64,000 bases of DNA from a virus (IMGVR_UViG_3300037313_001714:1-64000), one strand, 5' to 3'; counted from the stretch's first letter, positions 9,144 to 52,607 are shown. The notes: a model not told the origin generated them from the sequence alone. A program made the numbers and translations.

Positions 9144-9479
9144 ATGAGATCGAGCCAGAAGTACGGCAGCCCGTTCCAGCACCCGGCGCCGCGCCGCGAG
9201 GACCTGCCGCCGCAGAAGGCGGCGCCCATCGTCGCGTACGGCATGCGGCGCGAGGGCGTGCTGTGGATCATGGACGAGGTGCAGTGGTGGAGCCACCGGG
9301 CACTGCGCGACACCCACCGCTACCGCGAGGTGTCCGAAGCGCCGCCGCACCGCCTGCTGAAGCGCCTGCAGAACGATCTGCTCGTGCGCGTGCAGGCCGC
9401 GACCGTGGCGCGTGAGCTGCGCAACCACCGCGAGCGCGAGCTGCGCCACATGGAACGCAACTACGGAGACGCCTGGTGA
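9144..9479 (+). CDS. hypothetical protein, tail ...NYGDAW
   Basis: First gene of the repeat-ended array. Confidence 0.6.
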   Translation: MRSSQKYGSPFQHPAPRREDLPPQKAAPIVAYGMRREGVLWIMDEVQWWSHRALRDTHRYREVSEAPPHRLLKRLQNDLLVRVQAATVARELRNHRERELRHMERNYGDAW

Positions 9480-9871
9480 GCAGCTGCTACTTCACCCGCC
9501 GCGCCGGCTTCGAGCCGGCCAGGACCGAGGGCTACGCCACGCCGTTCGTCCTGGTCGAGTTTGACTGCGACGACAACTGCCACCTCTGGTTCACCGACAG
9601 CCTGAAGTGCACGGCCCCGGGCGATCGGCTGCGCTACCGGTTCGACGAGGCCGAGCGCTTCGTGAAGGACGGCAGCTGGGTCGAGCTGACCGAGGCCCAG
9701 GCCGAGCGCCACCTGGAATGGGCGCGCACCCGGCCGCACCCATGGCCGTGGCCGAGCCATCCGGTCGACGTGGCCCTGAACGACCCGGCCGAGCGCCAGC
9801 GCATCGCCGAGGTGCTGCTCAATGGCAAGCCCTCGGATGCGCCCGAGACCGGCATCGAGGAGGCCTGGTGA
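9476..9871 (+). CDS. hypothetical protein, tail ...ETGIEEAW
   Basis: GTG start overlapping the previous stop codon. Confidence 0.65.
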   Translation: MSSCYFTRRAGFEPARTEGYATPFVLVEFDCDDNCHLWFTDSLKCTAPGDRLRYRFDEAERFVKDGSWVELTEAQAERHLEWARTRPHPWPWPSHPVDVALNDPAERQRIAEVLLNGKPSDAPETGIEEAW

Positions 9872-9872
9872 C

Positions 9873-10301
9873 ATGGCGATCGGGCTGAGCGCGGCGGTGC
9901 AACAGGCGATGGACCAGGCGGGCGAGCTGTGCGCCTGGATGGAGTCGCTCGCGAGCAGCGGCAGCCGCTTTTTCACCAACCCGAATGGCTTCGTGGGCGT
10001 GACTGGCGAGCCGATCGTGCTGGTCGAGATACAGGGCACGATGCGGGCGTCCTGGAGTCGCAGCGACGAGCGCGAACCCCGGCGCGAGCTGCACCAGCAG
10101 CCCGATTCGGTCGATCTGGAATTCGCCGAGAAGACCGTCACGAGCGGCATCTGGGTCGAGCTGGACGTCGAGCACGCCGTGCAGCACATGCTGTACGCGC
10201 TGCGCACCCAGCCGCCCTGGCTCTACACGGACCACACGCTGGCGAGCCAAGCCGCGGTCAACCCGTGGACCCCCGAGACCAGCTACGGAGACGCCTGGTG
10301 A
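9873..10301 (+). CDS. hypothetical protein, tail ...ETSYGDAW
   Basis: ATG 1 nt after the previous stop; GGAGG inside the repeat can serve as SD. Confidence 0.65.
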   Translation: MAIGLSAAVQQAMDQAGELCAWMESLASSGSRFFTNPNGFVGVTGEPIVLVEIQGTMRASWSRSDEREPRRELHQQPDSVDLEFAEKTVTSGIWVELDVEHAVQHMLYALRTQPPWLYTDHTLASQAAVNPWTPETSYGDAW

Positions 10302-10555
10302 TGCGCGTCTTCGACCGCCAGAACGCGCCGCCGGACGTCACCCTGTGGCGCATCGTCATCTACGACGACGGCTCGTGGACGCACGTCTACATGGACGGCA
10401 CCATCAGCAAGCACGACTCGGGCGGCCGAGACAAGCTGCGCGAGCTGCTGCTGCTGCGCACGCTCTGGCGCGAGCGCCCGAGCTGGGAGCACCCTGCGGG
10501 CTTCGAGCTGCAGCGCTGCGACCAGCCCGAGACCAGCTACGGAGACGCCTGGTGA
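10301..10555 (+). CDS. hypothetical protein, tail ...ETSYGDAW
   Basis: TGATG overlap with the previous gene. Confidence 0.6.
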   Translation: MRVFDRQNAPPDVTLWRIVIYDDGSWTHVYMDGTISKHDSGGRDKLRELLLLRTLWRERPSWEHPAGFELQRCDQPETSYGDAW

Positions 10556-10604
10556 ACACACAGCTGCACGTTTCGGGCGTTTCGTTCAAGCATAGGTGCA
10601 CGCC

Positions 10605-11117
10605 ATGAGCACGCCCGACCCGAACGAGCGCGACTACCGCTACTACAGCGCCACCGACCCCGAGTTCGCCTGGAACGTCGTGCGCGTCGATGAGCCGACC
10701 GGCCGGGCCTGGCAGCAGACCCAGGAAGGCGACTGGTATCAGCTCGATCCGAAGGGCGACTGGCGGGACTGGGCGCGCCGGCATGTTGCAATGGGCAAGC
10801 GCGTCGAGATCAACTGCAGGGCGGACCGCACCGACGTGCCGCAGACCGCAGGACGCCTGGTGAGCACCATGCGCTGCTACCGCCCGCTCATTCAAGGGGC
10901 CAGCTGGACGCTGGCCAAGATCGACGCGGGGCGCAACGAGCTGCACCTGCTGCGGCTCAAGGGCAACTGGGAGGTCCTGCCACGCACCCAAGGAGATTGG
11001 CAGGCCGACTGGGCTGACGACGCCCTGCAGCGCGGCCACCTCGAGGAAATCGAGGACCCGGACGCCGCGGCACCTGCGGGCTCGGACATCCCCGAGGCCA
11101 GCCAGGACGCCTGGTAG
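10605..11117 (+). CDS. hypothetical protein, tail ...EASQDAW
   Basis: 170 aa, Trp-rich. Confidence 0.65.
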   Translation: MSTPDPNERDYRYYSATDPEFAWNVVRVDEPTGRAWQQTQEGDWYQLDPKGDWRDWARRHVAMGKRVEINCRADRTDVPQTAGRLVSTMRCYRPLIQGASWTLAKIDAGRNELHLLRLKGNWEVLPRTQGDWQADWADDALQRGHLEEIEDPDAAAPAGSDIPEASQDAW

Positions 11118-11129
11118 GAGCGCTGCGCC

Positions 11130-11504
11130 ATGGGCATCCGTGTGATCGTCTGCGGGGGTCGCGACTACAGCGACCGCGCAGCCCTGTTCAACATTCTGGA
11201 CCGCATTCACGTGCGCTACCCGATCGCCGTCATCGTCGAGGGTGGTGCAACCGGTGCAGACGACCTGGCGGCGGTGTGGGCCCGCAAGCGCGGTGTGCCC
11301 ATCGAGGAGCACAAGGCGGCGTGGTCGGTGCACGGCAAGATGGCCGGCAGGGTCCGCAACGGGCAGATGGCCCGGCTGGGTGCCCACCTGTGCGTGGCGT
11401 TCCCGGGAGGCGCTGGCACGGCCCACATGGTGGAAGTGGCCAGGCGGCATGGCATCAAGGTCTGGCAGCCGCTCGGGCCGGGGATGTGGCCCTATAAGGA
11501 TTGA
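11130..11504 (+). CDS. SLOG-family (DUF2493/YspA-like) protein
   Basis: 'RVIVCGGRDY', 'EGGATGAD', 'AGRVRNGQM', 'VAFPGGAGTAHM'. Confidence 0.85.
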   Translation: MGIRVIVCGGRDYSDRAALFNILDRIHVRYPIAVIVEGGATGADDLAAVWARKRGVPIEEHKAAWSVHGKMAGRVRNGQMARLGAHLCVAFPGGAGTAHMVEVARRHGIKVWQPLGPGMWPYKD

Positions 11505-11510
11505 AGAGTC

Positions 11511-11699
11511 ATGACACCCACCGAACAGGTAGCCTACAAGGACGGGCTTGATGCGGGCTGGCGCCACGGCCGCTACGAGGGCAACACGAGCTTCTTCATC
11601 GACTGTCCGTATGCCGAGGGCACACCCGAGTACGCCGCGTGGCAGAGGGGCTTTGGCGATGGCACCGAGGACTTCATCGCATGGCAGCGGTCGGACTGA
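11511..11699 (+). CDS. ribosome-modulation-factor (RMF)-like small protein
   Basis: 'AYKDGLDAG...CPY...EYAAWQRGF' resembles the RMF CPY..W..GW core. Confidence 0.5.
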   Translation: MTPTEQVAYKDGLDAGWRHGRYEGNTSFFIDCPYAEGTPEYAAWQRGFGDGTEDFIAWQRSD

Positions 11700-11895
11700 T
11701 CGAGGGTCGGCTGTATAAGGATTGAGGCCTGGTTCCTCCCGGCCTGGCCGTATAAGGATCGTCCTGACCAAGGTCGGAACGAGGAAGGCTGGGCCGCCGC
11801 CCGTATCAAGCTCTTCTAGGACTGTGCACCTCGGCAAAACCGGTCCCGTTGATGAGGTTCCCTTCGAAGGACTCATCAACGGGACTGGTTGCTCA

Positions 11896-12108
11896 TCAGT
11901 GCAGCGTCGCAGTGCAGCGCACGAGCGCATCGATGGTCGTGTGGATGAGCTGCTCGGGCTGCTGCTCACCGCTCAGCATCACCATGTTCGCGGGAATGGT
12001 TGAGTAGCTCCCGCTGACCGTGTCGAGCACATCATAGGTTTCTTGGAAGTCATCGTAACTCAGCACGTAGAGTGGATGAGCTTCGCTCACGTAAACAGTG
12101 CGATTCAT
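11896..12108 (-). CDS. hypothetical protein (lower-GC cassette)
   Basis: GAGGTCAACC-ATG leader, identical to that of the adjacent gene. Confidence 0.5.
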   Translation of the reverse strand: MNRTVYVSEAHPLYVLSYDDFQETYDVLDTVSGSYSTIPANMVMLSGEQQPEQLIHTTIDALVRCTATLH

Positions 12109-12182
12109 GGTTGACCTCGTGAATGGTTGAGACAGTCAGCGGTGAGTGTGAGTCACCGCTGACTTTACCTGATGACCAGAGC

Positions 12183-13139
12183 TTAGCGCTTATTGCTGCG
12201 CTTGCCCTTGCCCTTGTTCTGCTGAGATTCGGGCTGCACCGAACTACCCTCTGCGCTGACCGGTGCAGCGTTGTCGATGGGCTCGCTCATGCTGGGCGAT
12301 TCGCTGAGCTGTTCGTTGATGAGCTGTCGCTGCTCGCTGTCATCGTGCAGCTCGTCTGCTTCTGCGATCAGCGAATTGATGAGGTCGCTGACCTCTGCGC
12401 TGTCATCGTGAACCTGAGCGGTAACATCGGGCGTCTGCGGGTCTGCGACTGCTGCGGGCATCACTGCTTCGGGTTGCGTCTGCGGGACGTCTGCGGGCGC
12501 TTCTGCGGGCGTTTGCTGCTCGTTCTTTTCGTCTGCGCTCGTGAGCACCTTTGCGGGAGCAAAGATGCTAGCGAAGAGCTTTGCCCGGTCGTTATCGTAG
12601 AGCTTCATCACATCGCCCGCATGCGCTTTGCGAACCTCTGCGATCCCAAGGTAATGCAGCGTCATGCGAGTGGATGAGCTTTGCGTGCTTGCGGTCCCGG
12701 GCGTGCAGTCACGCTTGACCTTGAGCATTTGAACCTCGTCAAGAGCGTTGTATGCGATGCTCTTACTCAAGCACACGAGGTTGCTCTTGTTGGTGATCTG
12801 GTGCAAATTGATGAGGTTTGCACCGATCGCGTTGGTGTACGGGTCGAGATCACTGCGCAGCTGCGTCGCGAGCGCTTGCAGCGTCGAAACGATTTTGACC
12901 AGGACTTTTACCGCGATGAAATTGAGCTTGTCACTGTTCGGGTTCGCGATGCGAACCCTGCGCAGCAATTCGGGCGCGACCTCAGCGAAAGCGGGCAAGC
13001 TCATCACCTTGTCGAGCGCGACTGCTGACCTGCGCGCATTGCTGAGCGCGGTGAGCGTGTCGTTGCTGTGCACTTCTGCGTTGCGGGATTCGAGCGCAGC
13101 AATGAATTGTTGAGAGAACGAAACGGTAGAGCTGTTCAT
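12183..13139 (-). CDS. hypothetical protein with acidic low-complexity C-terminus (lower-GC cassette)
   Basis: 318 aa from MNSSTV; GAGGTCAACC-ATG leader; atypical codon usage. Confidence 0.7.
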   Translation of the reverse strand: MNSSTVSFSQQFIAALESRNAEVHSNDTLTALSNARRSAVALDKVMSLPAFAEVAPELLRRVRIANPNSDKLNFIAVKVLVKIVSTLQALATQLRSDLDPYTNAIGANLINLHQITNKSNLVCLSKSIAYNALDEVQMLKVKRDCTPGTASTQSSSTRMTLHYLGIAEVRKAHAGDVMKLYDNDRAKLFASIFAPAKVLTSADEKNEQQTPAEAPADVPQTQPEAVMPAAVADPQTPDVTAQVHDDSAEVSDLINSLIAEADELHDDSEQRQLINEQLSESPSMSEPIDNAAPVSAEGSSVQPESQQNKGKGKRSNKR

Positions 13140-13391
13140 GGTTGACCTCTGAAAAGATGGGTTGGAACGGATGAGTTGACTCACTGGTGACTTGCGCGCG
13201 AGGGATGAGCTTGCATTGCGCAAGCGCTCGCGCGGGCGACCCAGTGACCGGGTTGTTAAAGAGCGTGGGCGCTTGCGTGAGATCGCGCGGGCGTGAGTCA
13301 ATTCTAGTCACGCATGCCCGCGATACTAGGTCAGCGGTGAGTTACCATGAATCTGGACCGTAACGCATCGTGGACTCAGCGGTACGCGGGC

Positions 13392-13435
13392 AAGCTCAGG
13401 AGTGGAAAGCTCAGGAGTGGAAAGCTCAGGAGTGG
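13392..13435. repeat. 15-bp-period tandem repeat AAGCTCAGGAGTGG(A) x3
   Basis: Units at 13392, 13407 and 13422. Confidence 0.9.
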
Positions 13436-14255
13436 CAATGGCTGGGCTGCTGCTCGGCCGCGCCTAGGCTCAGCCATGGACCCAGCCATGGCGAGCGCGG
13501 CCAGGCGGCGCCGTGGCCCGTCCTAGGCGGGCGGCGCCGAGGCCCTGCCGCGGCTGCTGCCTTTGGCCGGCCACCGGCAACCGTCGGCGCGGCATCCGAT
13601 TTCCGTTGGGCCGCCCGTCGCCGTGGCATCCGATGCCGCCCCACGCCGCCCCATCCGGTACAGTGACCCTTGCCCGTGCCCGTTGCTGCCCGTGGCGTCT
13701 CCTGCTGCTCCTGGCAGGGACGCGATCCAGTGCCACTGCCATGGACGGTCGGCACGGGCGCCATGGCGGCAGGCAGGCTGGTCAGGCAGCGTTCAGGCTT
13801 TGGCAAGCCAGGCTGCTCTACAGTGCGCCCGCACGCCGCCTGCCCCGCCGGGTGTATGCCTGAACGGGCTCGGAGCAACGGGGATGGCCAGGCGGCGTGC
13901 ACCTCCAAGGAGCCGAGGGCAGTTGCGCTTTTACGATGGCTTGAGCACCGCCGCTCGCTTCGCTCGCTTGTGCTGCCTGTCCTTCCCCCTAGCCTCTCCT
14001 CTTCCCCTCTCTTCCATGGCATGACCGTCTTCCGGTGTGCTCGCCATGGCGGTGCTGTCCTCTCTGTCGTTGACCCTGCCGGTGTCGCTTCCTTCCTCCA
14101 TGGGGAGTGACCGTCGGCGTGGCATCCGAGTTGGTTCTGCCTGTGCTTTTTCTCTTACGGTTCAGGTCGCCTTGCCTGTCGAGTTTGCTCTGTCTGCCTC
14201 GACATTTCCTGCAATGTGAAACCTTATAGGCGGGCCGACAGTCGTCCTTTCTTTG

Positions 14256-14268
14256 TAAGTTGTTGATT
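14256..14268 (-). promoter_or_regulatory. IHF-consensus site
   Basis: Minus-strand AATCAACAACTTA matches WATCAANNNNTTR, in an AT-rich patch. Confidence 0.5.
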
Positions 14269-14296
14269 TTCCTAGGCTTTTTAGCGTTTCAGGCAG

Positions 14297-14326
14297 GAAA
14301 AGGCCCGATGCTTATAGATCGGGCCT
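14297..14326 (-). terminator. rho-independent terminator ending the long minus-strand early block
   Basis: AGGCCCGAT-8 nt-ATCGGGCCT followed by TTT on the minus strand. Confidence 0.7.
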
Positions 14327-14399
14327 GTACGCATATCCAGTTGCAGACAGCCTGCGATGGGCAGGACTGTATGCCTATCCAGTGGTTTCCTGGGCCTGG

Positions 14400-14603
14400 T
14401 CAGAAGGTCGGCAGGTCGTAGGACACGAGCCGGCCCACGTGGAAGTCATCGAACTGCGCGCGATTGGCAAACACGTTGATCGCCTCGAACTCCGGGCTGA
14501 TGTGGACGATCCGCCCGTCCTTGAGTGTGACGACGACGTCGTCGGCAGCGCTGTGGAAGAAGCCGACCTCCATGGTCACGCCTTGCGCTTGCACTTTGTC
14601 CAT
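14400..14603 (-). CDS. hypothetical protein
   Basis: AGGAG SD; ends ...YDLPTF. Confidence 0.6.
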   Translation of the reverse strand: MDKVQAQGVTMEVGFFHSAADDVVVTLKDGRIVHISPEFEAINVFANRAQFDDFHVGRLVSYDLPTF

Positions 14604-14636
14604 GATGGGTGTCTCCTGTGGTGGGTTGGGGTTGGC

Positions 14637-14921
14637 TCAGGCGAACACGTCGATGGAACCGTCGGCGTTCACGTTCAGGCAGTGGGCCGGCTGGTGGATG
14701 GCGTCTGCGGCGCTGTCGAAGTCCTGGTCGAACCAGAAGACCGGCACCAGCCCGTGCTCGTACACGCCCTGCCATTCCACGTAGCAGTGCTTCGTGATGT
14801 GACCGTCAGCCTGCAGCTTTTGCAGCAGCGGCTCGGCGATCTTGTCCATCTCGCGCTCGGTGAAGTCGCCGGTGGCATGGGCGAGCAGATCGACGACGAG
14901 GTTCGGAACGGTGGCGATCAT
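14637..14921 (-). CDS. hypothetical protein
   Basis: AAGGAG SD; start MIATVP. Confidence 0.6.
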   Translation of the reverse strand: MIATVPNLVVDLLAHATGDFTEREMDKIAEPLLQKLQADGHITKHCYVEWQGVYEHGLVPVFWFDQDFDSAADAIHQPAHCLNVNADGSIDVFA

Positions 14922-15001
14922 GGCAATCTCCTTTGCGTGTGGTTGACCGATGCACGCATGTTCGGGCGCACGCATTGGCGTGCGCGTGGCTGATTCGTGC
15001 C

Positions 15002-15406
15002 TCAGATGTGATCGCCGACCGCGACCATCATGTCATCCTGCGTGAGCGGCAGGTCAGGCGTTGCCGGTGCGGGCCTGCGCGCCATCAGCGCCTCGAGTTG
15101 CGGCGGGACGGGCTTGGCTTCGGCGTTGGCGATCTCGACCAGCTGGCGGGCGTAGAACTTCATGCGCGGGCGCACGGCGTTCAGCTGGCGCTCGGTCAGG
15201 GTGCCAAAGCGCTTGGACTTGCGCGCGATGTCCGACAGCCACTCCGCGTCGCGCTTGTTGAAGCCGACGCCGTTGGCGTGCGCGGTGTACTGCATCTGCT
15301 GCTCGTCGGCGGTCTGCCTGGCGTACAGCGCCTGCAGCGCGCGGTAGACGGCGCGCGGGCTGGCATCGAGCAGCGCGTGAACGTGTTCCTTGGTCCACAT
15401 AGCCAT
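15002..15406 (-). CDS. conserved-type phage hypothetical protein
   Basis: 'LYARQTADEQ...NGVGFNKRDA..LS..TLTERQL'; GGAGG SD. Confidence 0.65.
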   Translation of the reverse strand: MAMWTKEHVHALLDASPRAVYRALQALYARQTADEQQMQYTAHANGVGFNKRDAEWLSDIARKSKRFGTLTERQLNAVRPRMKFYARQLVEIANAEAKPVPPQLEALMARRPAPATPDLPLTQDDMMVAVGDHI

Positions 15407-15587
15407 CGCCTCCAAGGTGCGTGTGTTGCGATAGACCCATGGTCTCGAGCACACGCAGGCGTGCATGCGGCAGATCACGTTGCCTGGCAGGTTGCCGCGT
15501 CAGGGCGGGTGGGCAGCAGTCCTAGGCTGCGCCGCGGCGGCCGCGGTCCACGACAAAGCCGGCGGCGGGCACCGGCTTTGCGCTGGA

Positions 15588-17639: not shown

Positions 17640-17779
17640 GATGCGGGTCTCCTGTGAGTGGGTGGGTTCAGGCTTCGGGGCGGTCGCCGACGTGCTTGCG
17701 GATGCACACGAAGGCGAGCACGGCGACCGGCGGGATGAAGAAGATCAGGACGATGGGCATGGCGCGCTCCCGCGTGGCT

Positions 17780-18082
17780 TCACCAGCCGCCGAACTTCAT
17801 GTCCTGGAACGCGCCGCATTCCGGGCAGCTATGGGCTTCCACGAACTGCTCGTGGGTCGTTGCCCGCGGCAGGTCGTTGGCGTGCTTCCAGCAGCTGCCG
17901 CACTCGTCGCACAGGTGCTTGTGGTTGCCGGTGCCCACCACGTCCTCGTGCGGGTGACAGGCGGTGCGCAGGTGCTGCGGCTGGTCGTGCTGCTCGTGCA
18001 CGCGCGGCGTGAGCGGCGCAGGCCCGAAGGCGATCGGATCGAGCAGATCGAAGAAAGAGGCAAGGTCGTGACGGAACAACAT
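17780..18082 (-). CDS. zinc-ribbon protein, tail ...KFGGW
   Basis: CHPH, CDECGSCWKH and CPECG motifs. Confidence 0.6.
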   Translation of the reverse strand: MLFRHDLASFFDLLDPIAFGPAPLTPRVHEQHDQPQHLRTACHPHEDVVGTGNHKHLCDECGSCWKHANDLPRATTHEQFVEAHSCPECGAFQDMKFGGW

Positions 18083-28106: not shown

Positions 28107-28448
28107 TTAGAACGCGCCGACGGCGTTGGCCGGCCGGTCGTTTGCGCCGCCAAACGTCTCTTTGGCGGGCGGCGGTTTGACGGGCTCCAGGCGCACGGCG
28201 CCCGGATGCGCGCGCCACTTCATGTTGTGCAGGTGGTTGCCGTCGCGGTCGATCTCGTAGCCTTGCAGTCGGGTGCGGCCGAAGCCGGTGACGAACATCC
28301 GCACCTGTCGGCCCTTGGCCCAGAAGGTGACGATGGAGCCGTAGCGGATCTCCTGATGCTGCTTGGTCGTGATCTCGGCGTTGACGGCGTCGCGCAGGTC
28401 CATGAGGGCCTGCAGCGACAACTGGCGCAGCTTGCTCCTGTCGATCAT
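28107..28448 (-). CDS. hypothetical protein, tail ...AVGAF
   Basis: AAGGA SD. Confidence 0.6.
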   Translation of the reverse strand: MIDRSKLRQLSLQALMDLRDAVNAEITTKQHQEIRYGSIVTFWAKGRQVRMFVTGFGRTRLQGYEIDRDGNHLHNMKWRAHPGAVRLEPVKPPPAKETFGGANDRPANAVGAF

Positions 28449-30108: not shown

Positions 30109-30372
30109 TCAGTTCTCCTTGCGGGCCAGCGTGCGTGCGGCCCACACGAGGCGTTCATGGCGCCGGGCCTCGTAGGCGATCTCGCTGGCTTCGTCCATCG
30201 ACATCTCCGCGCAGAGCATCCCGAACCAGCTCCACTGCTCGTCGCCGCGCCGGTACTGCTGCACCGCCAGGCGTCGCGACAGTGCGGCGGCCGTGAGCGC
30301 CTCGTGGAACCGATGGTGGGCGACATACATGCGCTCCAGCTCCTCGTCCACGTCGATTGCGTCCAGGTCCAT
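30109..30372 (-). CDS. hypothetical protein
   Basis: Start MDLDAI; coupled ORF. Confidence 0.55.
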   Translation of the reverse strand: MDLDAIDVDEELERMYVAHHRFHEALTAAALSRRLAVQQYRRGDEQWSWFGMLCAEMSMDEASEIAYEARRHERLVWAARTLARKEN

Positions 30373-30812
30373 CACCAGGCCCCTCCTTCGATGTCCTCGC
30401 TCTCGGTCTGCGGGCGGTTCGGGTCCGGCCCCTTGGGCAGCTCCAGCGTGTTGCCCTCCTCCACCAGCACGCCTTCGTCGTCGCGCTTGGAGGCGGTCCA
30501 CGCCTCGAGGAACTTCTCGTAGGCGGCGATGCCGGCGGCCTCGGTGGGAAAGGTCTGGTCGCTGTCGGCCGGGTCCACCACCAGACTGCCGTCGGCGGTG
30601 TAGTTCTTCACCAGCAGGATGAAGACCTTCCAGTAGTCGGAAAGGGTGTTCTGCGGGTCCTCGATCCGGCCGACCCACTGCAGCGTCACGTTGACGACGC
30701 CGTTGTCGTACTGGCGCACGATCGGGTAGGCCGGATCGGCGCGCAGCTCGCGCCACTTCTTGGCGTCGATCGGCTTGCCGTCACGGTCGATGAAGGCCAC
30801 GAGTTTGGCCAT
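30372..30812 (-). CDS. hypothetical protein, tail ...EDIEGGAW
   Basis: AGGAG SD; operator at 30831. Confidence 0.7.
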   Translation of the reverse strand: MAKLVAFIDRDGKPIDAKKWRELRADPAYPIVRQYDNGVVNVTLQWVGRIEDPQNTLSDYWKVFILLVKNYTADGSLVVDPADSDQTFPTEAAGIAAYEKFLEAWTASKRDDEGVLVEEGNTLELPKGPDPNRPQTESEDIEGGAW

Positions 30813-38708: not shown

Positions 38709-39215
38709 TCAGAAGGTCCCCCAGCCGTGCAGCGTGGCGGTGCGCTCGGCATCGAGCGCCCGTGCCTGTTCTTCCAGCTCGCGCTGGCGGGCCTCGCGCT
38801 CGGCGAGCTTTTCCGGCGAGTTGTCGGGCATGTCCTTCACCCGGAAGTCGCCGACGAAGCTCGGGTAGTAGTCGTCGGTGTTGTGCGTGCCGACCTCGAG
38901 GACGACCTTGTCGTTCTCCAGACACACGAACTGCACGGCGTCGTGCGTCGTGCTACCGACCTCTGGCGTCTTCTGCCCGCGCACCCGCACGGGGTGGAAG
39001 CGGTTGATCTGCGGCACGTACGGCACCACCACGATCTCCTTCATGCAGCTGCGGTAGCCGTCCTCCGGGTCCTCGATCGCCTGGTAGCAGACGCCGTCCA
39101 GCTCGAAGGTGATCGTGCTGGCGTCGCCGCCACCGTAGTCGTTTGTGTTGGCGATCTGGGCGGTGTCCACGCCGGTCAGATCGAACTCCTTGCCGACGAA
39201 ATCGTCCAGCGTCAT
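38709..39215 (-). CDS. hypothetical protein, tail ...HGWGTF
   Basis: 'AIEDPEDGYRSCM', 'GTHNTDDYYPSF'. Confidence 0.7.
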   Translation of the reverse strand: MTLDDFVGKEFDLTGVDTAQIANTNDYGGGDASTITFELDGVCYQAIEDPEDGYRSCMKEIVVVPYVPQINRFHPVRVRGQKTPEVGSTTHDAVQFVCLENDKVVLEVGTHNTDDYYPSFVGDFRVKDMPDNSPEKLAEREARQRELEEQARALDAERTATLHGWGTF

Positions 39216-39559
39216 CAGAAGGTCCCCCAGCCCTGTTCCACGCGCTCGGCCTGCACGCGGGCTGCTGCCCGCGCCACCTCGCAGCGCGAGGTCGCCAGCG
39301 CGCACAGGGCGCGCGCCACGTCGGTCACGCCTTGTTGGCGGCCGGTGAGCGTGTCGGCGGGCGTGATGACCAGGCCCAACTCCTTCGTGAACCAGCCCTC
39401 CTGCGGTCCGGCCAGGACGTCGTCGTCCGGCGGGTTGGTGTCGAACGGCCAGGGCTTGCGCTTGGACAGCCCTGCCTTGAGGGCCGCGCGGTCGGCGGCC
39501 GCGCGCTGGGCTTCCCCGAACTGCATCAACGCCTCGATGTCATCGGCGAGCTTGCCCAT
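39215..39559 (-). CDS. hypothetical protein, tail ...QGWGTF
   Basis: Shares a 20-bp 3' end with the downstream gene. Confidence 0.6.
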   Translation of the reverse strand: MGKLADDIEALMQFGEAQRAAADRAALKAGLSKRKPWPFDTNPPDDDVLAGPQEGWFTKELGLVITPADTLTGRQQGVTDVARALCALATSRCEVARAAARVQAERVEQGWGTF

Positions 39560-39963
39560 CACAGCTCCCTCCAGCCGTTCTCGATCAGCCTGGTGCAGAA
39601 GCTGTCCATCATTTCCTTCGCGTGGGCGGGCGAGGCGCAGCCGCCGTGACTGCGAAAGCCGCGCAGCGGCTTGCTCACGTAGAAGCTCGACTCCTGCATC
39701 TGGCGCTCCACCACCATCGGTTCCTTCTTCCAGAAGAAGCGTCGCTCCATCGGCGGCTTCTCGCGGGCGATGCGGCCCGCCTCGCACATCAGCTCGCTGA
39801 CGTCCTCGCTCACCAGCCCGCTGACGGCCTTCCAGGTCGCGGCGATGCCGGTGGAGAACTGGCTGTCGGTCAGCAGCCCGTTGCGCACGGCCGCCATCAG
39901 CCAGTCGAGCGTTTCGACGGTCTTGCGGTCCAGCTCTTCGCGCACGCTCGGCAGTTGAGTCAC
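39559..39963 (-). CDS. hypothetical protein
   Basis: 134 aa; operator at 40039 upstream. Confidence 0.6.
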   Translation of the reverse strand: MTQLPSVREELDRKTVETLDWLMAAVRNGLLTDSQFSTGIAATWKAVSGLVSEDVSELMCEAGRIAREKPPMERRFFWKKEPMVVERQMQESSFYVSKPLRGFRSHGGCASPAHAKEMMDSFCTRLIENGWREL

Positions 39964-46168: not shown

Positions 46169-46254
46169 GAGGCGTGCTTTCCTTGTGCTTTTCGGGAGGG
46201 GGAGCGTGAGTCTAGCCAAGTCACCGATGACTTACTATAAGCGGCGGAATTAAT

Positions 46255-46923
46255 TCACCACGCCTGCTCGTCGCTGCCCTCCGGGATGTCATTGGTCGTG
46301 GACTTCTCAACGGTTTCGGCCTTTTTCGCGGACGACAGCAGACCGGCGCCGGTGATCACCCAGGCGCCCTCGAGAAAGGTGTATTCGGTGCCGGTGTTGG
46401 CGTCGTAGAAGCGCGCGCCTTTCACCAGCGTCACGCCGGGCGGCAGCTGGGGCTCCGGCGGCATCGAAACGATCGAGCCGATCCCGCTACCGAGCACTCC
46501 CTTGAAGGCCTCCTTCATGGCCTTTTCGTCGAATTCATCTGTGGAGATGGTCAGCGACGGCATGGTCGGCGCGGCCGCGGTGAGCCTCGGATCGTTGGGC
46601 TCCAGAAACCTATAAGGATTGATGGCCGGCCTCGAAAAAGCCGGCGACGGAATGTCGTGTTTGCAAACGACGCGGTCCTTGCAGGCCGCGCGGATCGTGA
46701 TGACGCGCTGGTCGCGGTGGTAGATGGGCGGATGTTCGTGCTTCGTGATCTCCATGTGCTCGCAGCCTGCACACCCGGGTCGCTCTTCGGCCACCGCGTC
46801 CCGCAGACGCTCTTCGTGGGCCTTCACGCGCTTGGCGAAGTAGTCGCTGCCCTTGAACATGCGCTCGAGGCTTGACTGCGTCACGTCCACCCGCAGGTCT
46901 TGGTCAATCAGTCGCTTGCCCAC
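46255..46923 (-). CDS. hypothetical protein, tail ...SDEQAW
   Basis: GTG start; CxxC motif; operator at 46937. Confidence 0.6.
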   Translation of the reverse strand: MGKRLIDQDLRVDVTQSSLERMFKGSDYFAKRVKAHEERLRDAVAEERPGCAGCEHMEITKHEHPPIYHRDQRVITIRAACKDRVVCKHDIPSPAFSRPAINPYRFLEPNDPRLTAAAPTMPSLTISTDEFDEKAMKEAFKGVLGSGIGSIVSMPPEPQLPPGVTLVKGARFYDANTGTEYTFLEGAWVITGAGLLSSAKKAETVEKSTTNDIPEGSDEQAW

Positions 46924-46956
46924 GGTCTGACTCTATCTCACGGGTGACTTAGCCAC

Positions 46957-47535
46957 TCAGGCAGCAGCAATCACACCGAAGCGGCTTCCCCGCAGCACCG
47001 ACACCAGCCGGCGGAATTCATCCGTGTTGACGCCCGCCTGGATCGCCGCCACGGCGTCGGCCAGGTGCTCGTTCTTGCCGGTGATCGCGCCGCGGTGCAG
47101 CAGCCATGGCGCCGCCGGGAAGCGCGTGGTGGCCCACTCGATCATCTCCTCCTTCGTGGCGGTCTTCTTGCCGAAGCCACCGAGCTTCACCTCGGTTGGC
47201 GTCACCTCGATCATCGGGATGCCGCAGCTGGCGAGCACGCCCACGCAGATGCCGTAGCTGGCCATGGCGCGCGCGCTCTGGCTGCCCACAGGCACCTCCA
47301 CGAAGGCGATGGCCGCGCCCGTGCAAGCCAGCTGCAGCCCGCCGTACAGGATGCGGGCGCGCGCCAGGTCCTGGCAGTTCTTGCGAATCACCTTGCGGGC
47401 CGCCTTGTCGGGCTCCGTGGACACGAGCTTCAGACCCGTGATCTTGAACTCCAGCGTGTCCAGGTCCAGGTCCGCGTGGGCGAACCCCCAGTTGTTCAGG
47501 GACGGGTCCATCCCCACGACTTTCACAGTGCTCAT
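46957..47535 (-). CDS. ruvC: RuvC-like Holliday junction resolvase
   Basis: VVGMDPSL, FVEVP, KEEMI, EHLADAVA. Confidence 0.8.
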   Translation of the reverse strand: MSTVKVVGMDPSLNNWGFAHADLDLDTLEFKITGLKLVSTEPDKAARKVIRKNCQDLARARILYGGLQLACTGAAIAFVEVPVGSQSARAMASYGICVGVLASCGIPMIEVTPTEVKLGGFGKKTATKEEMIEWATTRFPAAPWLLHRGAITGKNEHLADAVAAIQAGVNTDEFRRLVSVLRGSRFGVIAAA

Positions 47536-47771
47536 GGTTTCATCTTTCCGAACAGCGACTTGCCGCTGCGTTTGTTGAGGTAGTGGTCGGCGACCACCAT
47601 CGTGACGAACAGGCCCACGCAGCACAGGCCGGCGAGCACGCCGTAGCCGACGACCAGCATGGGCGGCAGCCACAGCGGCATGGCAACCATCCACCAGGCG
47701 CAGGTAATCAGGCCCTGCACCTTCAGCACGGCCAGCAGGGCCGTCAGGATCACACCGGGGTAGAGGCGCAT
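47532..47771 (-). CDS. small membrane protein
   Basis: 'LLAVLKVQGLITCAWWMVAMPLW'. Confidence 0.6.
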   Translation of the reverse strand: MRLYPGVILTALLAVLKVQGLITCAWWMVAMPLWLPPMLVVGYGVLAGLCCVGLFVTMVVADHYLNKRSGKSLFGKMKP

Positions 47772-47774
47772 GGC

Positions 47775-48413
47775 TCAGAACATCCCGAAGTTGTCGTAGT
47801 CGTCGAACTTGGAGCGGTTGCGCTCCTTCTCTTTGATCTCGCTGGCCTTGCGCGCGAGCGCGTGCAGCTTGTCGGACAGCGTGCTGCCGTCCTCGAACCA
47901 CGTGAGCTGGTCGAAGCCATGCATGTGCGCCAGCGCGTCGTCCACGAACATCTCCATGTGGGCGTACTCGGCGGCCTGCAGCGGCTGGAACTTGATCAGC
48001 ATGCGCTTGCGCTTGCCGATGTAGGCCTCGACCGGCTTGAAGTCCTCGCCGCCCACGTGCGAGACCTTGTGGTAGGTGCCGTTGACGCGGCAGCAGGTCA
48101 GCACCTCCGGGCCGGCCAGCGTGCAGGTGGTGATCGCCTGGTCGGGTTGCGCCGCGAAGTAGGTCGTCAGCTCCTGTGCCAGGTCGGTCAGCTCGGCCTC
48201 CAACAGCATGGCGTCGTCGATGTCGTCGTCGGGTTGAGGTTCGTCCATGGGATTGCTCTTCCATTGAGGGCCGTGAGATGTTTGGACCTTGCGCGACGGC
48301 GCGGGCCGTCGCGGGGCGGCAGCGACCAGCGCCTGGTACTCCGGGTCGTTGGTCGTCATGCCAGGGGTGTTGAGGAACACCTCGAAGGGCGACCTGCCTG
48401 CTGCGCCGGCCAT
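47775..48413 (-). CDS. hypothetical protein, tail ...DNFGMF
   Basis: The start may alternatively be at 48248. Confidence 0.6.
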   Translation of the reverse strand: MAGAAGRSPFEVFLNTPGMTTNDPEYQALVAAAPRRPAPSRKVQTSHGPQWKSNPMDEPQPDDDIDDAMLLEAELTDLAQELTTYFAAQPDQAITTCTLAGPEVLTCCRVNGTYHKVSHVGGEDFKPVEAYIGKRKRMLIKFQPLQAAEYAHMEMFVDDALAHMHGFDQLTWFEDGSTLSDKLHALARKASEIKEKERNRSKFDDYDNFGMF

Positions 48414-48414
48414 G

Positions 48415-50361
48415 TCAGAACGTCGCCACCGTGGCGCCCGTGACGGTGGACTTGCCACCGGACTTCGTGACCGTCACCGTCTGGTCGATCCAGTCGCTCA
48501 GCGAGTTGTGGCTGATCACCAGCACCGTGCCGCGCTCCTTCGCCTTGCGGTCGAGCACGCCCATCAGACGCTCCAGCCCGCTCTCGTCCAGCGCGTGGTC
48601 CACCTCGTCGGCGATGAAGATGTTGATCGGCTTGCTGGCGCGCGAGGCCACCAGGTCCTGCAGCGCCAGCGCGGTGGCGATGCGCACCTTGCGCTTTTCG
48701 CCGCCCGACTGCAGCCCGAAGCTGGCGCCGCCGGTGTCGTTGGCGACGGCGATCGAGAACTTCTCCTTCAGCTCACCCTTCGCGTTGGCGGTGAGCGTGC
48801 TCCAGGTCGCGTGCAGGTTCCCGTCGGCCAATGCACCGAGGTACTCACCGGTCTGGTGGTTCAGAAATGGCGTGACGGTGTCGAGAATGTGCGCGCGCAC
48901 GCCCGCAGGCCCGAACACCGCGCATGCGTCTTTGAGCAGCGCGTGGCGCGCTTCGAGCGCGGCGACGGCGCTGATGGCGAGGTTCAGCTTGCCCTCCAGA
49001 TCCTTCACCGCCTTCTCGCGTGCCGGCAGGTGCGGCGTCCACGGGTTGGGCTCGGTGAGCTTGGCCTTCGCATTGGCTTTGGCAGCGGCGATGGCCTCCA
49101 GATGACGCTTGTGCAGGCGCTCCAGGTCGGCGCGCTCGCCCAGCTGGCGGTTGATGTCGGCCAGCTCCGCGGTGGCCGCGCTCACGTCGGTCATGGTTGC
49201 CTTGTGGTCGTCCAGCGCCTTCTGCGCAGCCGCCACTTCCGCCTTCGCAGTGCGTGCAATGCCCACGAAATACCGCAGGTTCGCCTCGATCGCCTTCAGG
49301 TGCTTGGCGCGGTGCTCGCGCAGGCCATCGAGGTCGTGCTCGCTGTACGGCTTGCCGCACTCCGAGCACGCCGTGCCAACCTTGTCGGCGACATACGCCA
49401 GCGCCTGTTTGGCGTCGTCGTAGTTCATCTTGGCGTTGCGCGCGTCACTGCTCGCGACGGCGTCGTGCATGTGGGCCTTACCCAGCGCCCTTTGCAGGCG
49501 CTCCAGCTCGTCCTGCTCGCCCTTCACGCCGGCGATCTGCGCTTCCAGATCGAGCTTGCGCCGCCCGAGCGGCAGCGCCGCGATCGCGGCGATCTTGACT
49601 TGCAGGTCGTTCGCGTTGGCCGTCAGCGCCGGCACGTTGCCAACCTCCGCAGCCGCCCTGCCCTTGCGTCCCGCTTCGAACTCCTTCGCCTGGTCCTGGT
49701 AGTTGGCCAGCGTGTCGCGCGCTGCGTCCAGCTGGATCTGCAGGTGGTCGCGCTCGTTGTAGGCCACCGCCAGGTTCTTCTCGACGGCCGTCGCCTGCTT
49801 GCCCGCTTCGGCGTACGCCGCGGCCAGCTCCTCGACGCCGGCGGCCTCCTCGACCAGGAGCTTGAGGAACTTGTCCGTCATGCCAGGCAGGTCGGGCATC
49901 TGTTCCTGGCCGGCGTAGACGCTGCCCTTGAAGACTTCCAGCGAGCAGCCCATCACCTTGGCGATGACCTCCTGCGTTTCGCGCTCGGTGCCCTTGTGCA
50001 GCGGCGTGCTGGTGCCGCTGGCGTCGATCTGGTGGACAAACAGCGCGTTCTTGTGGACGTTGTGCTTGCGAAAGCGCCAGATTTGGTACGTGATGCCGCC
50101 GTCCTCCAGCAGCACCTTGACGGCGCAGTCCTTCTTGGCCTTGCTGTTGACGATGGCGTCCCCGCTCTCGCCGCGCGCGGTGGTGCCGTACAGGCACCAG
50201 CACAGCGCGTCCACGATCGAGGACTTGCCCGCGCCGTTGGACTTCGCGCTCGAGTCGTCGGCGTTGACACCCTGCACCAGGATCAGGCCACGGTTGTCCA
50301 GCTCCAGATGGGCGTCGCCGATGGCGCAGAAGTTGTGGATGTCCAGTGCCTTGATGTCCAT
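48415..50361 (-). CDS. sbcC: SbcC/Rad50/gp46-like SMC ATPase
   Basis: NGAGKSS Walker A, CSEC zinc hook, QSGGEKRK signature, FIADEVD Walker B. Confidence 0.92.
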   Translation of the reverse strand: MDIKALDIHNFCAIGDAHLELDNRGLILVQGVNADDSSAKSNGAGKSSIVDALCWCLYGTTARGESGDAIVNSKAKKDCAVKVLLEDGGITYQIWRFRKHNVHKNALFVHQIDASGTSTPLHKGTERETQEVIAKVMGCSLEVFKGSVYAGQEQMPDLPGMTDKFLKLLVEEAAGVEELAAAYAEAGKQATAVEKNLAVAYNERDHLQIQLDAARDTLANYQDQAKEFEAGRKGRAAAEVGNVPALTANANDLQVKIAAIAALPLGRRKLDLEAQIAGVKGEQDELERLQRALGKAHMHDAVASSDARNAKMNYDDAKQALAYVADKVGTACSECGKPYSEHDLDGLREHRAKHLKAIEANLRYFVGIARTAKAEVAAAQKALDDHKATMTDVSAATAELADINRQLGERADLERLHKRHLEAIAAAKANAKAKLTEPNPWTPHLPAREKAVKDLEGKLNLAISAVAALEARHALLKDACAVFGPAGVRAHILDTVTPFLNHQTGEYLGALADGNLHATWSTLTANAKGELKEKFSIAVANDTGGASFGLQSGGEKRKVRIATALALQDLVASRASKPINIFIADEVDHALDESGLERLMGVLDRKAKERGTVLVISHNSLSDWIDQTVTVTKSGGKSTVTGATVATF

Positions 50362-50729
50362 CAGAACTCCCCGCTCATTTCCGCCTGCTCCTCGCGCAGA
50401 GCGTCGATGGCGCGTTGCGGCACGCGGTAACCCATGGCGCGCATCTGCTCGAGGCGGTCCGCCATCTCACCGGGCGTTGCTGTGATGAAGTCGTCCACGT
50501 GCGGCACGCCCAGTGGCACCATCGTCTCGTGGTCCAGCATCGCCGACACCTTCTGGTGGCGCTCGAGCCATTCCGCCATGTGCTCCTGGTCGAACGACAC
50601 CTCGGGCGGCAGCGGCTCCTTGAAGACGTACTTCAAGCCCGCGACGTGGCACTGCCAGCCGCCCATGCAGCTTTCGTACACGTACACGTCGCACTGGAAG
50701 TCGTCGGTGGAAAAGCGGCAGTAGCTCAT
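50361..50729 (-). CDS. hypothetical protein, tail ...MSGEF
   Basis: Start MSYCRFS; inserted between sbcD and sbcC. Confidence 0.65.
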   Translation of the reverse strand: MSYCRFSTDDFQCDVYVYESCMGGWQCHVAGLKYVFKEPLPPEVSFDQEHMAEWLERHQKVSAMLDHETMVPLGVPHVDDFITATPGEMADRLEQMRAMGYRVPQRAIDALREEQAEMSGEF

Positions 50730-51817
50730 GCAACACTCCTGACGGTGGTGAGGATGTCCTGGCACAGCGTCTGCAGCTCCGCGGGCTTCGCGAAGTGCGG
50801 CTGCGCCTTGATGTAGTCGCCGATCGACTGCTCGATGCTGGTGCCGGCCTTGTAGGTGGCCCCGGTGCGGGTCGCGCCGGTGGTCGTCTTCTCGCTCAGG
50901 ACCACCACGCCCAGTGCGCCCGCGTCCATCAGGAACTGGCGGGTCGCTTCGACGTCGGCGCTCTTGCTGCTGTTGATCGTGATGCGCACGTAGTTGCCGT
51001 CGGCCACCAGCGGGATGTCGGCGGGCGGCACACTGCCGTCGATCTCGACGAAGCGCGGCGCGTTGGTGCTGTGCCACTTCACCTCGTCGTCATCGACGAT
51101 GAGAAAGCCCGCCTGGCTGCCGATGTCGCTCCAGGTCTGGTGGGTGGTCGCGCCGATCGAGTAGACGCTGCGCGCCACGCTTCCCGGCTTGAGGTCCACC
51201 GCCATCTGCTTGTGGTGGTGGTAGTGGCCCGCGAGCACCCGCCGGAAGCCGCGCGCGAGCAGCCAGTCGGCGTCCAGCCCGTGGTCCGGCAGACCCTTGA
51301 TGACGCCGTCCACCGGCGCGTGGATGATGAGGTCGGTCTCCACCGGGTCGGTGCAGTGCGCCGCCACCTCGTCGATCGTGTCCTTCAGCTCATTGATGGC
51401 GGCGTGCCAGGGCACCAGCACGACGTCGCCGACGCGCTCACCGCTGGGCGTGTTCACCACCTGGCAGCCGATGCCGCGCATCGCGGTGATGGCGCTGGAG
51501 ACGTCTTCGGCGGTGCGGCCTTCCAGGTCGTGGTTGCCCGCAAGCAGGATCGTCTGCACGCCCAGCTTGTCGTGGATGTCCCGATACAGGTCCATCGTGG
51601 GGTTCAGCACCGAGGGGGCCAGGTTGCCGCGCACGTGAAACAGGTCGCCCGCGTGGAAGAGCCGGTAGCCGCCGGCAGCCTTCACCGCTTCGGCGGCGCG
51701 CCAGGTCTCGTCCAGGATGGTCTGCAGCCGGCTGTTTACGCCGCTGGGCAGCGTGGTGGCGAAGGCAGACCACGCATGGTTATGGCTGTCCGAAATGACG
51801 CCGTACGGCTTGCTCAT
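50726..51817 (-). CDS. sbcD: SbcD/Mre11/gp47-like metallophosphoesterase nuclease
   Basis: ISDSH, AGDLFH, GNHD, GHYH. Confidence 0.9.
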   Translation of the reverse strand: MSKPYGVISDSHNHAWSAFATTLPSGVNSRLQTILDETWRAAEAVKAAGGYRLFHAGDLFHVRGNLAPSVLNPTMDLYRDIHDKLGVQTILLAGNHDLEGRTAEDVSSAITAMRGIGCQVVNTPSGERVGDVVLVPWHAAINELKDTIDEVAAHCTDPVETDLIIHAPVDGVIKGLPDHGLDADWLLARGFRRVLAGHYHHHKQMAVDLKPGSVARSVYSIGATTHQTWSDIGSQAGFLIVDDDEVKWHSTNAPRFVEIDGSVPPADIPLVADGNYVRITINSSKSADVEATRQFLMDAGALGVVVLSEKTTTGATRTGATYKAGTSIEQSIGDYIKAQPHFAKPAELQTLCQDILTTVRSVA

Positions 51818-51909
51818 GTCGCTCCTGAAGTCATCGGTGACTTTGCATCATGGGCGCACGAATCCCGCGCGCCCGGTTTGTTCATTATACGCAGTAAGTC
51901 AGGCGTGAG

Positions 51910-52290
51910 TCACCTGACGGGGAACGCCAGATCAATCTTCCTGGGATCGTTCGCGGGGTCGACGGCGAAGTGCGTGCAACGCACGCCCCGCTCCAGGCCC
52001 AGCGGCGTGCGCGTGACGAAGCTCTTCTCGGGATGGAAGAAGTCCTCCAGCGGCGACAGCCACACGCACTTCTTGCCGCCCCGCCTGGCCACCACGCCCA
52101 CGTGCAGGAAGCCCTGCTCGCGGCAGCGCGCCAGCGTGCCGGTGTCGATGCTCCAGCCGTTGAATTTGCGATTGAGGTGGCGCATCTGCCGGTGCGCCAG
52201 GTAGATCCGGTGGCCGCCCTCGGTCTCGTAGTAGATGCCCAGCAACTTGCCATTGAGCGTGTGCCGTGTGCGCGCTACACGATGGGCCAT
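51910..52290 (-). CDS. hypothetical protein
   Basis: 126 aa ORF. Confidence 0.6.
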   Translation of the reverse strand: MAHRVARTRHTLNGKLLGIYYETEGGHRIYLAHRQMRHLNRKFNGWSIDTGTLARCREQGFLHVGVVARRGGKKCVWLSPLEDFFHPEKSFVTRTPLGLERGVRCTHFAVDPANDPRKIDLAFPVR

Positions 52291-52292
52291 GA

Positions 52293-52607
52293 TCAGAACT
52301 CACCCCAGTCGGCGTAGTGGGTGAGCGTCGTGTTCTCTTGCGCAGTGGCCTGCGCCTGCGTCACCGGGCCGTCGGCCACCGGCGGCGCCCACGGCTGATA
52401 CTTTCGCTGGAGCTGCCTGCTTTTTCGAATTTCGTTGTCCAAAAGAATCGAGACTTCCGGACTAAAGAAACGCGCATCTCCGTTTTCATCCTTGCGCGTC
52501 TGCCGCAGCCACACCAAATACCCCGGCGCCTCCTTGAGCAAACTCCCCACCGTCTGGCCCTTGTGCTTCCCGAAGGGCATGGTGTCCGTAAGATGTAGCA
52601 ATCCCAT
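52293..52607 (-). CDS. DUF3820-like (MPFGKHKG) small protein, tail ...DWGEF
   Basis: 'MPFGKHKGQTVGSLLKEAPGYLVWL'. Confidence 0.7.
   Translation of the reverse strand: MGLLHLTDTMPFGKHKGQTVGSLLKEAPGYLVWLRQTRKDENGDARFFSPEVSILLDNEIRKSRQLQRKYQPWAPPVADGPVTQAQATAQENTTLTHYADWGEF

Follow-up and report, generated by a model that had tools for sequence, protein, structure and literature searches.

An aromatic C-terminal tail on unrelated small proteins of a large phage may be a docking tag

RESULTS

Similar C-termini on a set of small phage proteins

The first 64,000 nucleotides of the viral record IMGVR_UViG_3300037313_001714 (the window) encode, between positions 9144 and 52607, a series of mostly small proteins that end in similar short peptides closing with Trp or Phe. 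An earlier note, made from the sequence alone, had described these endings as a C-terminal tag on unrelated proteins that might dock cargo on a phage hub (a replication compartment, AAA+ chaperone or capsid), much as the tail of SSB does, or serve as a degron; all 16 of the termini it listed lie in the sequence where it had reported them. The source record is a complete virus of 118,453 bp with terminal repeats and 66.7% GC. Since high GC gives rise to many false open reading frames (ORFs; the window has 482 of at least 50 residues), genes were called with a self-trained model of codon usage and third-position GC (GC3), which yielded 161 genes in the genome and 107 in the window.

Five tagged genes lie in tandem on the plus strand. 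The first (9144..9479) encodes 111 residues ending ..ERNYGDAW and matches no Pfam family; the next four, placed by the gene model, encode 131 residues ending ..APETGIEEAW (9476..9871), 142 ending ..TPETSYGDAW (9873..10301, with a possible start at 9822), 85 ending ..QPETSYGDAW (10298..10555) and 173 ending ..DIPEASQDAW (10596..11117). The others in the window are on the minus strand. Three of these are likewise calls of the gene model: a Cys-rich protein of 73 residues ending ..MKFGGW (17780..18001), a protein of 115 residues ending ..EQGWGTF (39215..39562) and a protein of 222 residues ending ..NDIPEGSDEQAW (46255..46923), which has no coupled downstream start. Proteins of 113 and 146 residues end ..NAVGAF (28107..28448) and ..EDIEGGAW (30372..30812), a DUF7448 protein of 168 residues ends ..HGWGTF (38709..39215), a 157-residue protein encoded downstream of sbcC ends ..YDNFGMF (47775..48248) and a 104-residue protein ends ..HYADWGEF (52293..52607). 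A 122-residue protein encoded between sbcD and sbcC (50361..50729; phrog_13573 in PHROGs) ends ..EMSGEF; it belongs to the set as the earlier note had it, although only as a weak member, and no orthologue was found in the relatives described below with which to compare its tail. Two further members lie beyond the window: a WGR-like protein ending ..DRGDAWGTF (genome 73498-73992, minus strand; L081:9498-9992) and a 62-residue protein ending ..PEGSDQEAW, whose gene adjoins the major capsid gene (genome 112324-112512; L083).

Two of the proteins originally listed do not belong here. SbcC (48415..50361, minus strand; 648 residues, Pfam AAA_23/SMC_N) ends ..TVATF, and its orthologues end ..RGSV, ..RGAV, ..EMAA or ..NTIL, the terminal Phe not being kept. 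A 67-residue ORF on the minus strand (14400..14603) ends ..SYDLPTF and lacks the motif. In sister phages, proteins of 140–162 residues carry a true SSB-type tip, ..DEDDLTPF, ..DDLIPF or ..DEDSIPF (L002:9428-9850, L003:8220-8642 and L005:10459-10947), and in the window there is only this ORF, with its ..YDLPTF end.

Trp or Phe ends 16 of the 107 window genes, compared with 5.35 expected (p = 8.5e-5). Across the genome, there are 9 Trp ends versus 2.7 expected (p = 0.002), 10 Phe ends versus 5.3 (p = 0.04) and 19 of either kind versus 8.05 (p = 5e-4). Ends of the form G-x-[WF] or [DEQG]-A-W close 16 of the 161 genes versus 3 of 1,041 non-gene ORFs in non-coding frames (p = 7e-20), and [YFW]G.[WF] stands exactly at the C-terminus six times in this genome, compared with 0.07 times expected from its internal rate. 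The tagged share of the phage proteins is about one-tenth, and nearly all of these proteins are small. An all-against-all BLASTP comparison of their bodies, which rejects paralogy, supports the claim that the carriers are unrelated.

The tail is kept in related phages

The DnaE of this virus is 42–45% identical to those of Rhizobium phages RHEph10 and RHph_X66, Stenotrophomonas phage ANB28 and Pseudomonas phage nickie, and ~37% identical to those of SSU5-like phage-plasmids; judged from sequence, the genome is a relative of RHEph10, nickie and the SSU5 group. That it is itself a phage-plasmid, as the earlier note had it, is not established. Homologues of core genes occur in Herbaspirillum, Cupriavidus, Paraburkholderia and Duganella records, two core proteins have close homologues in Burkholderiales genomes, and the host is probably a beta-proteobacterium. 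A megablast search of a phage collection with a 5-kb segment of the window gave no match, nor did a search of viral contigs with the 46255 protein. For comparison, we used the whole genomes of the cultured relatives ANB28, JGB6, RHph_X66, nickie and the SSU5-like coliphage Cyrano, five complete sister genomes from IMG/VR (G001–G005; loci L116-L144; 85–112 kb, 48.6–62.4% GC) and, from more than 575 CobT relatives in IMG/VR, 80 loci, mostly on contigs of ~85–112 kb. IMG/VR loci surrounding tail-bearing homologues of the DUF7448 protein were also read. Cultured members of the group infect Pseudomonas, Xanthomonas, Stenotrophomonas, Rhizobium and E. coli.

There was reason to suspect an artefact. 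In this genome, the last codons often contain GGAG, GAGG or GGGGGA, that is, Shine-Dalgarno sequences, within codons -2 to -4, and the stop codon overlaps an ATG or GTG in ~13 of 19 cases. Moreover, two adjacent and otherwise unrelated genes have ends identical over 27–30 nt (10272-10301 and 10526-10555), which points to a tag module that was recently duplicated or converted and would fit a portable module. Because these patterns made it plausible that the ends have no peptide function and are a by-product of Shine-Dalgarno sequences and overlapping starts, or a repeated DNA joint for the shuffling of cassettes, the relatives were examined.

Each of the five sister genomes has 7–17 Trp ends versus ~2 expected (p = 1e-4 to 6e-11). 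Six tagged families of this genome have orthologues in the sister genomes at 27–47% identity, all of which keep the tail. Orthologues of the 28107 protein end ..MAGSF and ..TGVRW, while those of the 30372 protein end ..DVGAW, ..GVGAW and ..EVGAW, with ..DAGGWS in nickie, so that EGGAW is paired with DVGAW and GVGAW. Likewise, NFGMF of the 47775 protein is paired with GFGSW and GFGSF (orthologue ends ..DFGSW, ..GFGSF, ..GFGSW and ..EFGSW) and DWGEF of the 52293 protein with EWGAW and LWGSF (..EWGAW, ..LWGSF, ..EWGAF and ..DWGSW). Genes at the same position as 46255..46923 end ..AAGDAW, ..TTDDAW and ..MQEDAW. Most homologues of the DUF7448 protein end after the folded core, and a subset is extended, ending GWGSF, NWGTF, GWASW, GWATW, DWQTW or GWGLW; since tail-less homologues exist, the tail is an add-on.

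Across relatives, the codons of the tail vary (GGC, GGA, GGT and GGG for Gly; TTT and TTC for Phe), and the DNA that comes after many tagged genes resembles a terminator or promoter and has no start codon. The tail is not confined to genes whose end overlaps the ribosome-binding site and start of the next gene, and nearby starts are not significantly more frequent after tagged genes, either here (odds ratio 2.4, p = 0.20) or in the relatives (odds ratio 1.6, p = 0.06). Since the tail is kept with other codons, at other GC contents (39–66%, including a genome of 48%) and with or without a coupled downstream gene, selection acts on the peptide, as had been claimed. The argument that the tags are encoded by different DNA holds across relatives and in part fails within the genome, where GC3 bias sets most tail codons and two tails share their DNA. 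A by-product of the DNA is largely refuted and, in our estimate, scarcely credible: besides the persistence of the tails in orthologues and the lack of a significant link to coupling, spurious ORFs almost never end in this way, and a Shine-Dalgarno sequence cannot account for a terminal aromatic residue.

The motif has lineage-specific spellings

From the sequences compared, the motif can be refined to (P-E-x)-[WYF/VI]-G-[AST]-[WF]-COOH at the end of an acidic segment with few hydrophobic residues; further forms in this genome are ..YGDAW and ..[DEQ][DEQ]AW. Among 156 tails from 10 genomes, position -2 is Gly in 58% (background 7%), position -3 is Trp, Tyr or Phe in 42% and position -1 is Ala, Ser, Thr or Gly in 64%. 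Position -4 is Gly, Asp, Glu or Ala, and Pro and acidic residues are common further upstream. The 20 residues that precede the tail have a hydrophobic fraction of 0.22 versus 0.32 (p = 5e-18) and are net acidic (p = 1e-6). AlphaFold models the DUF7448 protein (38709-39215; predicted local distance difference test [pLDDT] score 93.6) with a long helix (residues 134–165) that projects from a beta-rich body (1–124) and bears the tag at its tip; a Foldseek search with this model returned no match.

The spelling changes between phages. ANB28 has 12 Trp ends (p = 2e-6), mostly ..[NT]YGxW, and includes a tandem array resembling that at 9144-11117, while JGB6 has 11 Trp ends of the type ..PExYGxW. RHph_X66 has no Trp ends and 11 Phe ends, seven of them ..[YF]GxF (for example ..IPNFGAF). 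In nickie, twelve proteins end ..FG[GST]W[AS], ..FGAFA, ..WGAFG or ..YGLFG, which is the same motif followed by one small residue (Ala, Ser or Gly), that is, in a shifted register, as in ..RPENFGSWA; nickie has eight core motifs, and each has this additional residue. Cyrano has a single tag, ..ISWGSW. Around CobT, ~50 of the 80 IMG/VR loci, at 39–66% GC, encode an end of the ..WGSW type, some of them in the +1 register (..WGAWS). The 48.6% GC genome, G005, has the same version of the tag as its sisters of 60–62% GC.

It is possible, if unlikely, that the tail is a degron, which is the main rival to a docking tag. The exposed non-polar tail would be read by an AAA+ protease of the host (Lon, FtsH, ClpAP or adaptor-assisted ClpXP), so that early accessory proteins, some possibly toxic, are kept short-lived or leaky expression in lysogens is silenced. 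At most one residue (0–1) separates the motif from the free C-terminus, and the tail that bears it is flexible; the last 4–5 residues are non-polar or small, and the carriers are small accessory proteins. In work of Parsell, Silber and Sauer from 1990, non-polar C-terminal pentapeptides reportedly destabilize proteins in E. coli. Since the genome encodes a tyrosine integrase with an Arm DNA-binding domain (68503-69738, plus strand; L081:4503-5738), the phage is probably temperate. In addition, the phage family over-uses a second C-terminal code, -AA-COOH, which resembles the ClpX-recognized end of the ssrA tag, and C-terminal proteolytic codes may therefore matter here. However, the conserved Gly, the upstream P-E and the register shift in nickie point to a shaped pocket instead of general hydrophobicity. 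Host proteases are highly conserved, yet the versions of the tag differ by lineage, and G005, with its very different GC content, has the version of its sisters. Moreover, a conserved WGR-like protein of the replication module (see below) would hardly be kept unstable throughout the group.

The -AA ends are most frequent in RHph_X66, where they close 26 of 139 proteins versus 2.3 expected (p = 1e-19), among them UvsW, RecA, FEN, ligase, SbcC, CobS, ThyX and DnaQ. There are 16–17 each in G002, G003 and G004 and only four, which is not significant, in this genome (6269-8002, 32716-33276, 37861-38037 and 46957-47526). About 40% of -AA ends are GCA-TGA, giving an ATGA overlap, and the others are not; 62 of 120 RuvC homologues end in -AA.

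Tagged genes accompany replication and nucleotide-metabolism genes

Almost all carriers are small proteins of no known family, and searches of Pfam and PHROGs with them yielded nothing but WGR in RHph_X66 and phrog_13573. In this genome, 15 of the 16 tagged genes lie in the non-structural half, with the early, replication and nucleotide-metabolism genes, and several are translationally coupled to sbcD, sbcC, RNR or thyX. The most widely kept carrier is the WGR-like protein, which has the signature H.GGTKFYE...RWG and is found in this genome, G001–G005, RHph_X66, nickie and Cyrano; of the orthologues, that of RHph_X66 alone matches the Pfam WGR model (1e-11). The order primase, tagged WGR-like protein, ligase is conserved across the group, and in Cyrano this protein bears the sole tag. 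We infer that a WGR-like protein, of the DNA-nick-sensor type, would have been the ancestral carrier.

Among the proteins of this genome are a DnaE with a UDG-like fusion, a gp32-like SSB, RecA, FEN, SbcCD, a UvsW-like helicase and a DnaQ-like exonuclease, together with RuvC, a sigma factor, DnaB, DnaG and an ATP-dependent ligase. Nucleotide metabolism is represented by class II RNR, ThyX and dUTPase, and the genome further encodes PhoH, a CobS/CobT-like AAA+ and vWA pair and the integrase. DnaE (57393-60788, minus strand) has PHP, NTPase, finger and HhH domains and, in place of the usual C-terminal region, a UDG-superfamily domain at residues 984–1121.

One member invites another explanation, that the tail is a cargo-loading signal that docks inside an HK97-type procapsid, so that the carriers are injected with the DNA. 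The gene at 112324-112512 adjoins the major capsid gene, and the first ~40 residues of its product copy the N-terminus of the adjacent 152-residue head-module protein; it is a truncated head-module copy, a gene fragment that acquired the tail. The core of the motif, hydrophobic-G-S/A/T-hydrophobic near the C-terminus and after a flexible linker, recalls the cargo-loading peptides of encapsulins, the core of which is ..IGSL... Packaged anti-defence proteins are also known in T4. We nevertheless consider cargo loading very unlikely, given that 15 of 16 tagged genes are in early and replication operons, several of them coupled to sbcCD, RNR or thyX, that in none of the genomes compared does a core head-module protein carry the tag, and that the apparent ancestral carrier belongs to the replication module. 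A paper related to nickie reports no virion proteomics.

Searches for a reader of the tail

Since a phage that has DnaE and no clamp of its own must use the clamp of its host, the tail could be a motif for binding the host beta-clamp. A PF02768 search of the phage found no sliding clamp, and the two hydrophobic residues at i and i+3 at the extreme C-terminus resemble the ends of E. coli Pol II (..QLGLF) and ImuB (..QLPLWG). In T4, clamp-binding tails likewise occur on unrelated proteins. However, the tag has no conserved Gln, position -4 being Gly, Asp, Glu or Ala, and a small or polar residue, not Leu, precedes the last aromatic. The polymerase, FEN, ligase and DnaQ lack the tag at their C-termini in all genomes compared, and the versions of the tag differ despite the high conservation of the clamp pocket. 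Clamp binding thus seems to us slightly less probable even than cargo loading.

Two ORFs of a size and position suited to a clamp were considered and rejected. That at 56158-57288 (minus strand) is a core protein of 376 residues encoded beside DnaE, with a long acidic, low-complexity or disordered N-terminal part and a conserved C-terminal domain of ~170 residues that looks helical from sequence and has no Pfam match. The other (72702-73319, minus strand; L081:8702-9319), a conserved protein of 205 residues encoded between the WGR-like gene and ligase, consists of an N-terminal helical domain of ~85 residues with four invariant Cys (pLDDT above 94) and a disordered remainder; it has 396 homologues and no fold match in the PDB.

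Other candidates fared no better. No PDZ domain was found in the phage. By phyletic profile, dUTPase lost its specificity once the shifted-register tag of nickie was seen, and PhoH is missing only in Cyrano, which keeps one tag. A core ORF flanked by tagged genes (46957-47526, minus strand) was also considered and proved to be a RuvC-type resolvase; it falls below the Pfam thresholds used and has thousands of homologues, many of which, among the matches listed, are so named. PDB sequence searches with four core proteins lacking known function gave no match.

The CobS/CobT-like pair deserves separate mention, as a speculative candidate. The CobS-like MoxR AAA+ gene (63189-64406, minus strand) has its C-terminal part in the window (63189..64000), and its partner, the CobT-like vWA gene, follows at 64523-66445. 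The aromatic tail, and perhaps also the -AA tail, could be the client label of this pair in a virus-encoded addressing system: the metal-ion-dependent adhesion site (MIDAS) of the vWA domain would capture the acidic tail or terminal carboxylate beside the aromatic knob, leaving the client to be remodeled or assembled by the ATPase. The pair is present in all 11 genomes compared, as part of a core of ~34 proteins, no CobN was seen among the proteins scanned, and seven CobTs all have the MIDAS residues D432-x-S434-G-S436 and D567. Peptide capture has been proposed for the vWA domains of vWA-MoxR pairs (PMC7159879). Two unrelated phages with CobS/CobT also have shared C-terminal ends of the P-(x)-E-aromatic type. 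In cobavirus T5S1 (T5S1-k141_653015; L151-L153), 8 of 53 proteins end [VIL]P.EF[LF][SRE], and in Roseobacter phage CRP-810 (L148-L150), ends include ..PEWLS, ..DWSLLEA and ..DWLELDA. These ends are suggestive of a link to CobT, as a correlation only; seven of the T5S1 proteins are 62–69 residues long with dissimilar bodies and may be one family. As all of this evidence is correlative, Cyrano keeps the pair but has just one tag, and all other core genes show the same phyletic pattern, we regard this explanation as improbable, if less so than cargo loading.

DISCUSSION

Our analysis of this 118-kb virus and its relatives describes a C-terminal peptide that is enriched, conserved and strictly placed on proteins of unrelated sequence, and literature searches found no description of it. 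From these observations we infer binding, a single receptor and something of its identity: with about an even chance of being right, we favor the reading that proteins dock by this tail on one receptor, which co-evolves with it and is probably encoded by the phage. The tail would be a portable short linear motif on the acidic stalk of small accessory proteins, and two aromatic side chains, kept close by the glycine, would enter one pocket of a single receptor together with the free carboxylate. Many unrelated proteins could thereby be tethered to one place. A shaped pocket on one receptor is suggested by the strict placement at the C-terminus together with the conserved Gly and P-E and a spelling that changes genome-wide. 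Since the spelling shifts throughout a genome between lineages (Trp only, Phe only, or one added residue) and not with host GC, this receptor probably co-evolves with the tag and is encoded by the phage. As for its location, the WGR-like carrier lies between primase and ligase and other carriers in sbcCD, RNR and thyX operons, so that the tagged proteins are most probably directed to the machinery of phage replication and recombination.

Several points weigh against this docking tag and its proposed destination. No receptor or binding partner was identified in our clamp, PDZ and phyletic-profile searches, which leaves the earlier interpretation standing as to selection on the peptide and an acidic, docking-like tail, and without its hub. 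Among the cultured phages, differences in version between lineages are confounded with differences in host taxon. Taken alone, the preference of tagged genes for the non-structural half does not reach significance (p = 0.12). Because most carriers have no known function, the link to replication is drawn only from gene position, and the replisome enzymes do not bear the tag: DnaE ends ..HEIVS, FEN ..KELST, ligase ..AAVSA, DnaQ ..RMAA and the gp32-like protein ..DIDTTA. Finally, a non-polar C-terminal tail also has the look of a protease degron.

If there is one reader, what would it tell us? A single C-terminal label marks about a tenth of the proteome in a large and widespread phage group, and once its reader is named, dozens of uncharacterized proteins would together be given a shared fate or location. 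The reader might also reveal the organization of a DnaE-based phage replication factory or the timing of early proteins. The lineage spellings, including the one-residue register shift, amount to a natural specificity-swap experiment, and the availability of cultured phages makes the question testable. Were the CobS/CobT explanation to prove true, it would provide a first function for the 'cobalt chelatase' genes of phages and a receptor-and-tag pair that co-evolves genome-wide.

How does the tail compare with known C-terminal signals? A MoxR AAA+ and MIDAS-bearing vWA pair, as in the vWA-MoxR systems (PMC7159879), is likewise core to these phages; for those systems no client peptide is defined, and the link to the tag is one of co-occurrence only. 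Encapsulin cargo peptides share with the tag a short C-terminal position after a linker and a similar hydrophobic-G-S-hydrophobic core, and an invariant C-terminal Trp of McdB binds carboxysome shells (PMC11321042). In contrast to both, the tag is carried by products of early and replication operons that are not encoded with a shell gene, and its anchors are aromatic, whereas those of encapsulin cargo peptides are aliphatic.

Degrons, such as the ..LAA end of ssrA read by ClpX and the non-polar pentapeptides, are also strictly C-terminal and exposed, with non-polar last residues. The tag differs in its specific, lineage-dependent spelling, its conserved Gly and P-E, and its Trp or Phe end in place of ..[LV]AA. 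Clamp-binding tails (QL[SD]LF; ..QLGLF of Pol II; those of T4 gp43, gp33 and gp55) resemble it in being C-terminal, in having two hydrophobic anchors and in occurring on unrelated proteins, and they are read by one hub, as we suppose the tag to be. Unlike these tails, the tag has no Gln and a small residue at the third position, the usual clamp clients do not carry it, and no phage clamp was found.

The tip of SSB is ..DDD[IL]PF-COOH, and the acidic tails of T7 gp2.5 and gp4 end in Phe. The analogy drawn in the earlier note is apt for the general design, since these tails, which are used for docking, are like the tag acidic, flexible and C-terminal, with an aromatic end and a free carboxylate. 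It does not extend to the sequence or the carrier. The tag has Gly at -2, a second aromatic residue at -3 and no I-P-F, and in nickie a small residue follows the aromatic; its carriers belong to no family or are DUF7448 or WGR-like proteins, while the gp32-like SSB does not bear it. The arrangement also differs: for SSB and the T7 proteins, one hub carries the tail and many partners have the pockets, whereas here many unrelated clients carry the tail and a single partner may have the pocket.

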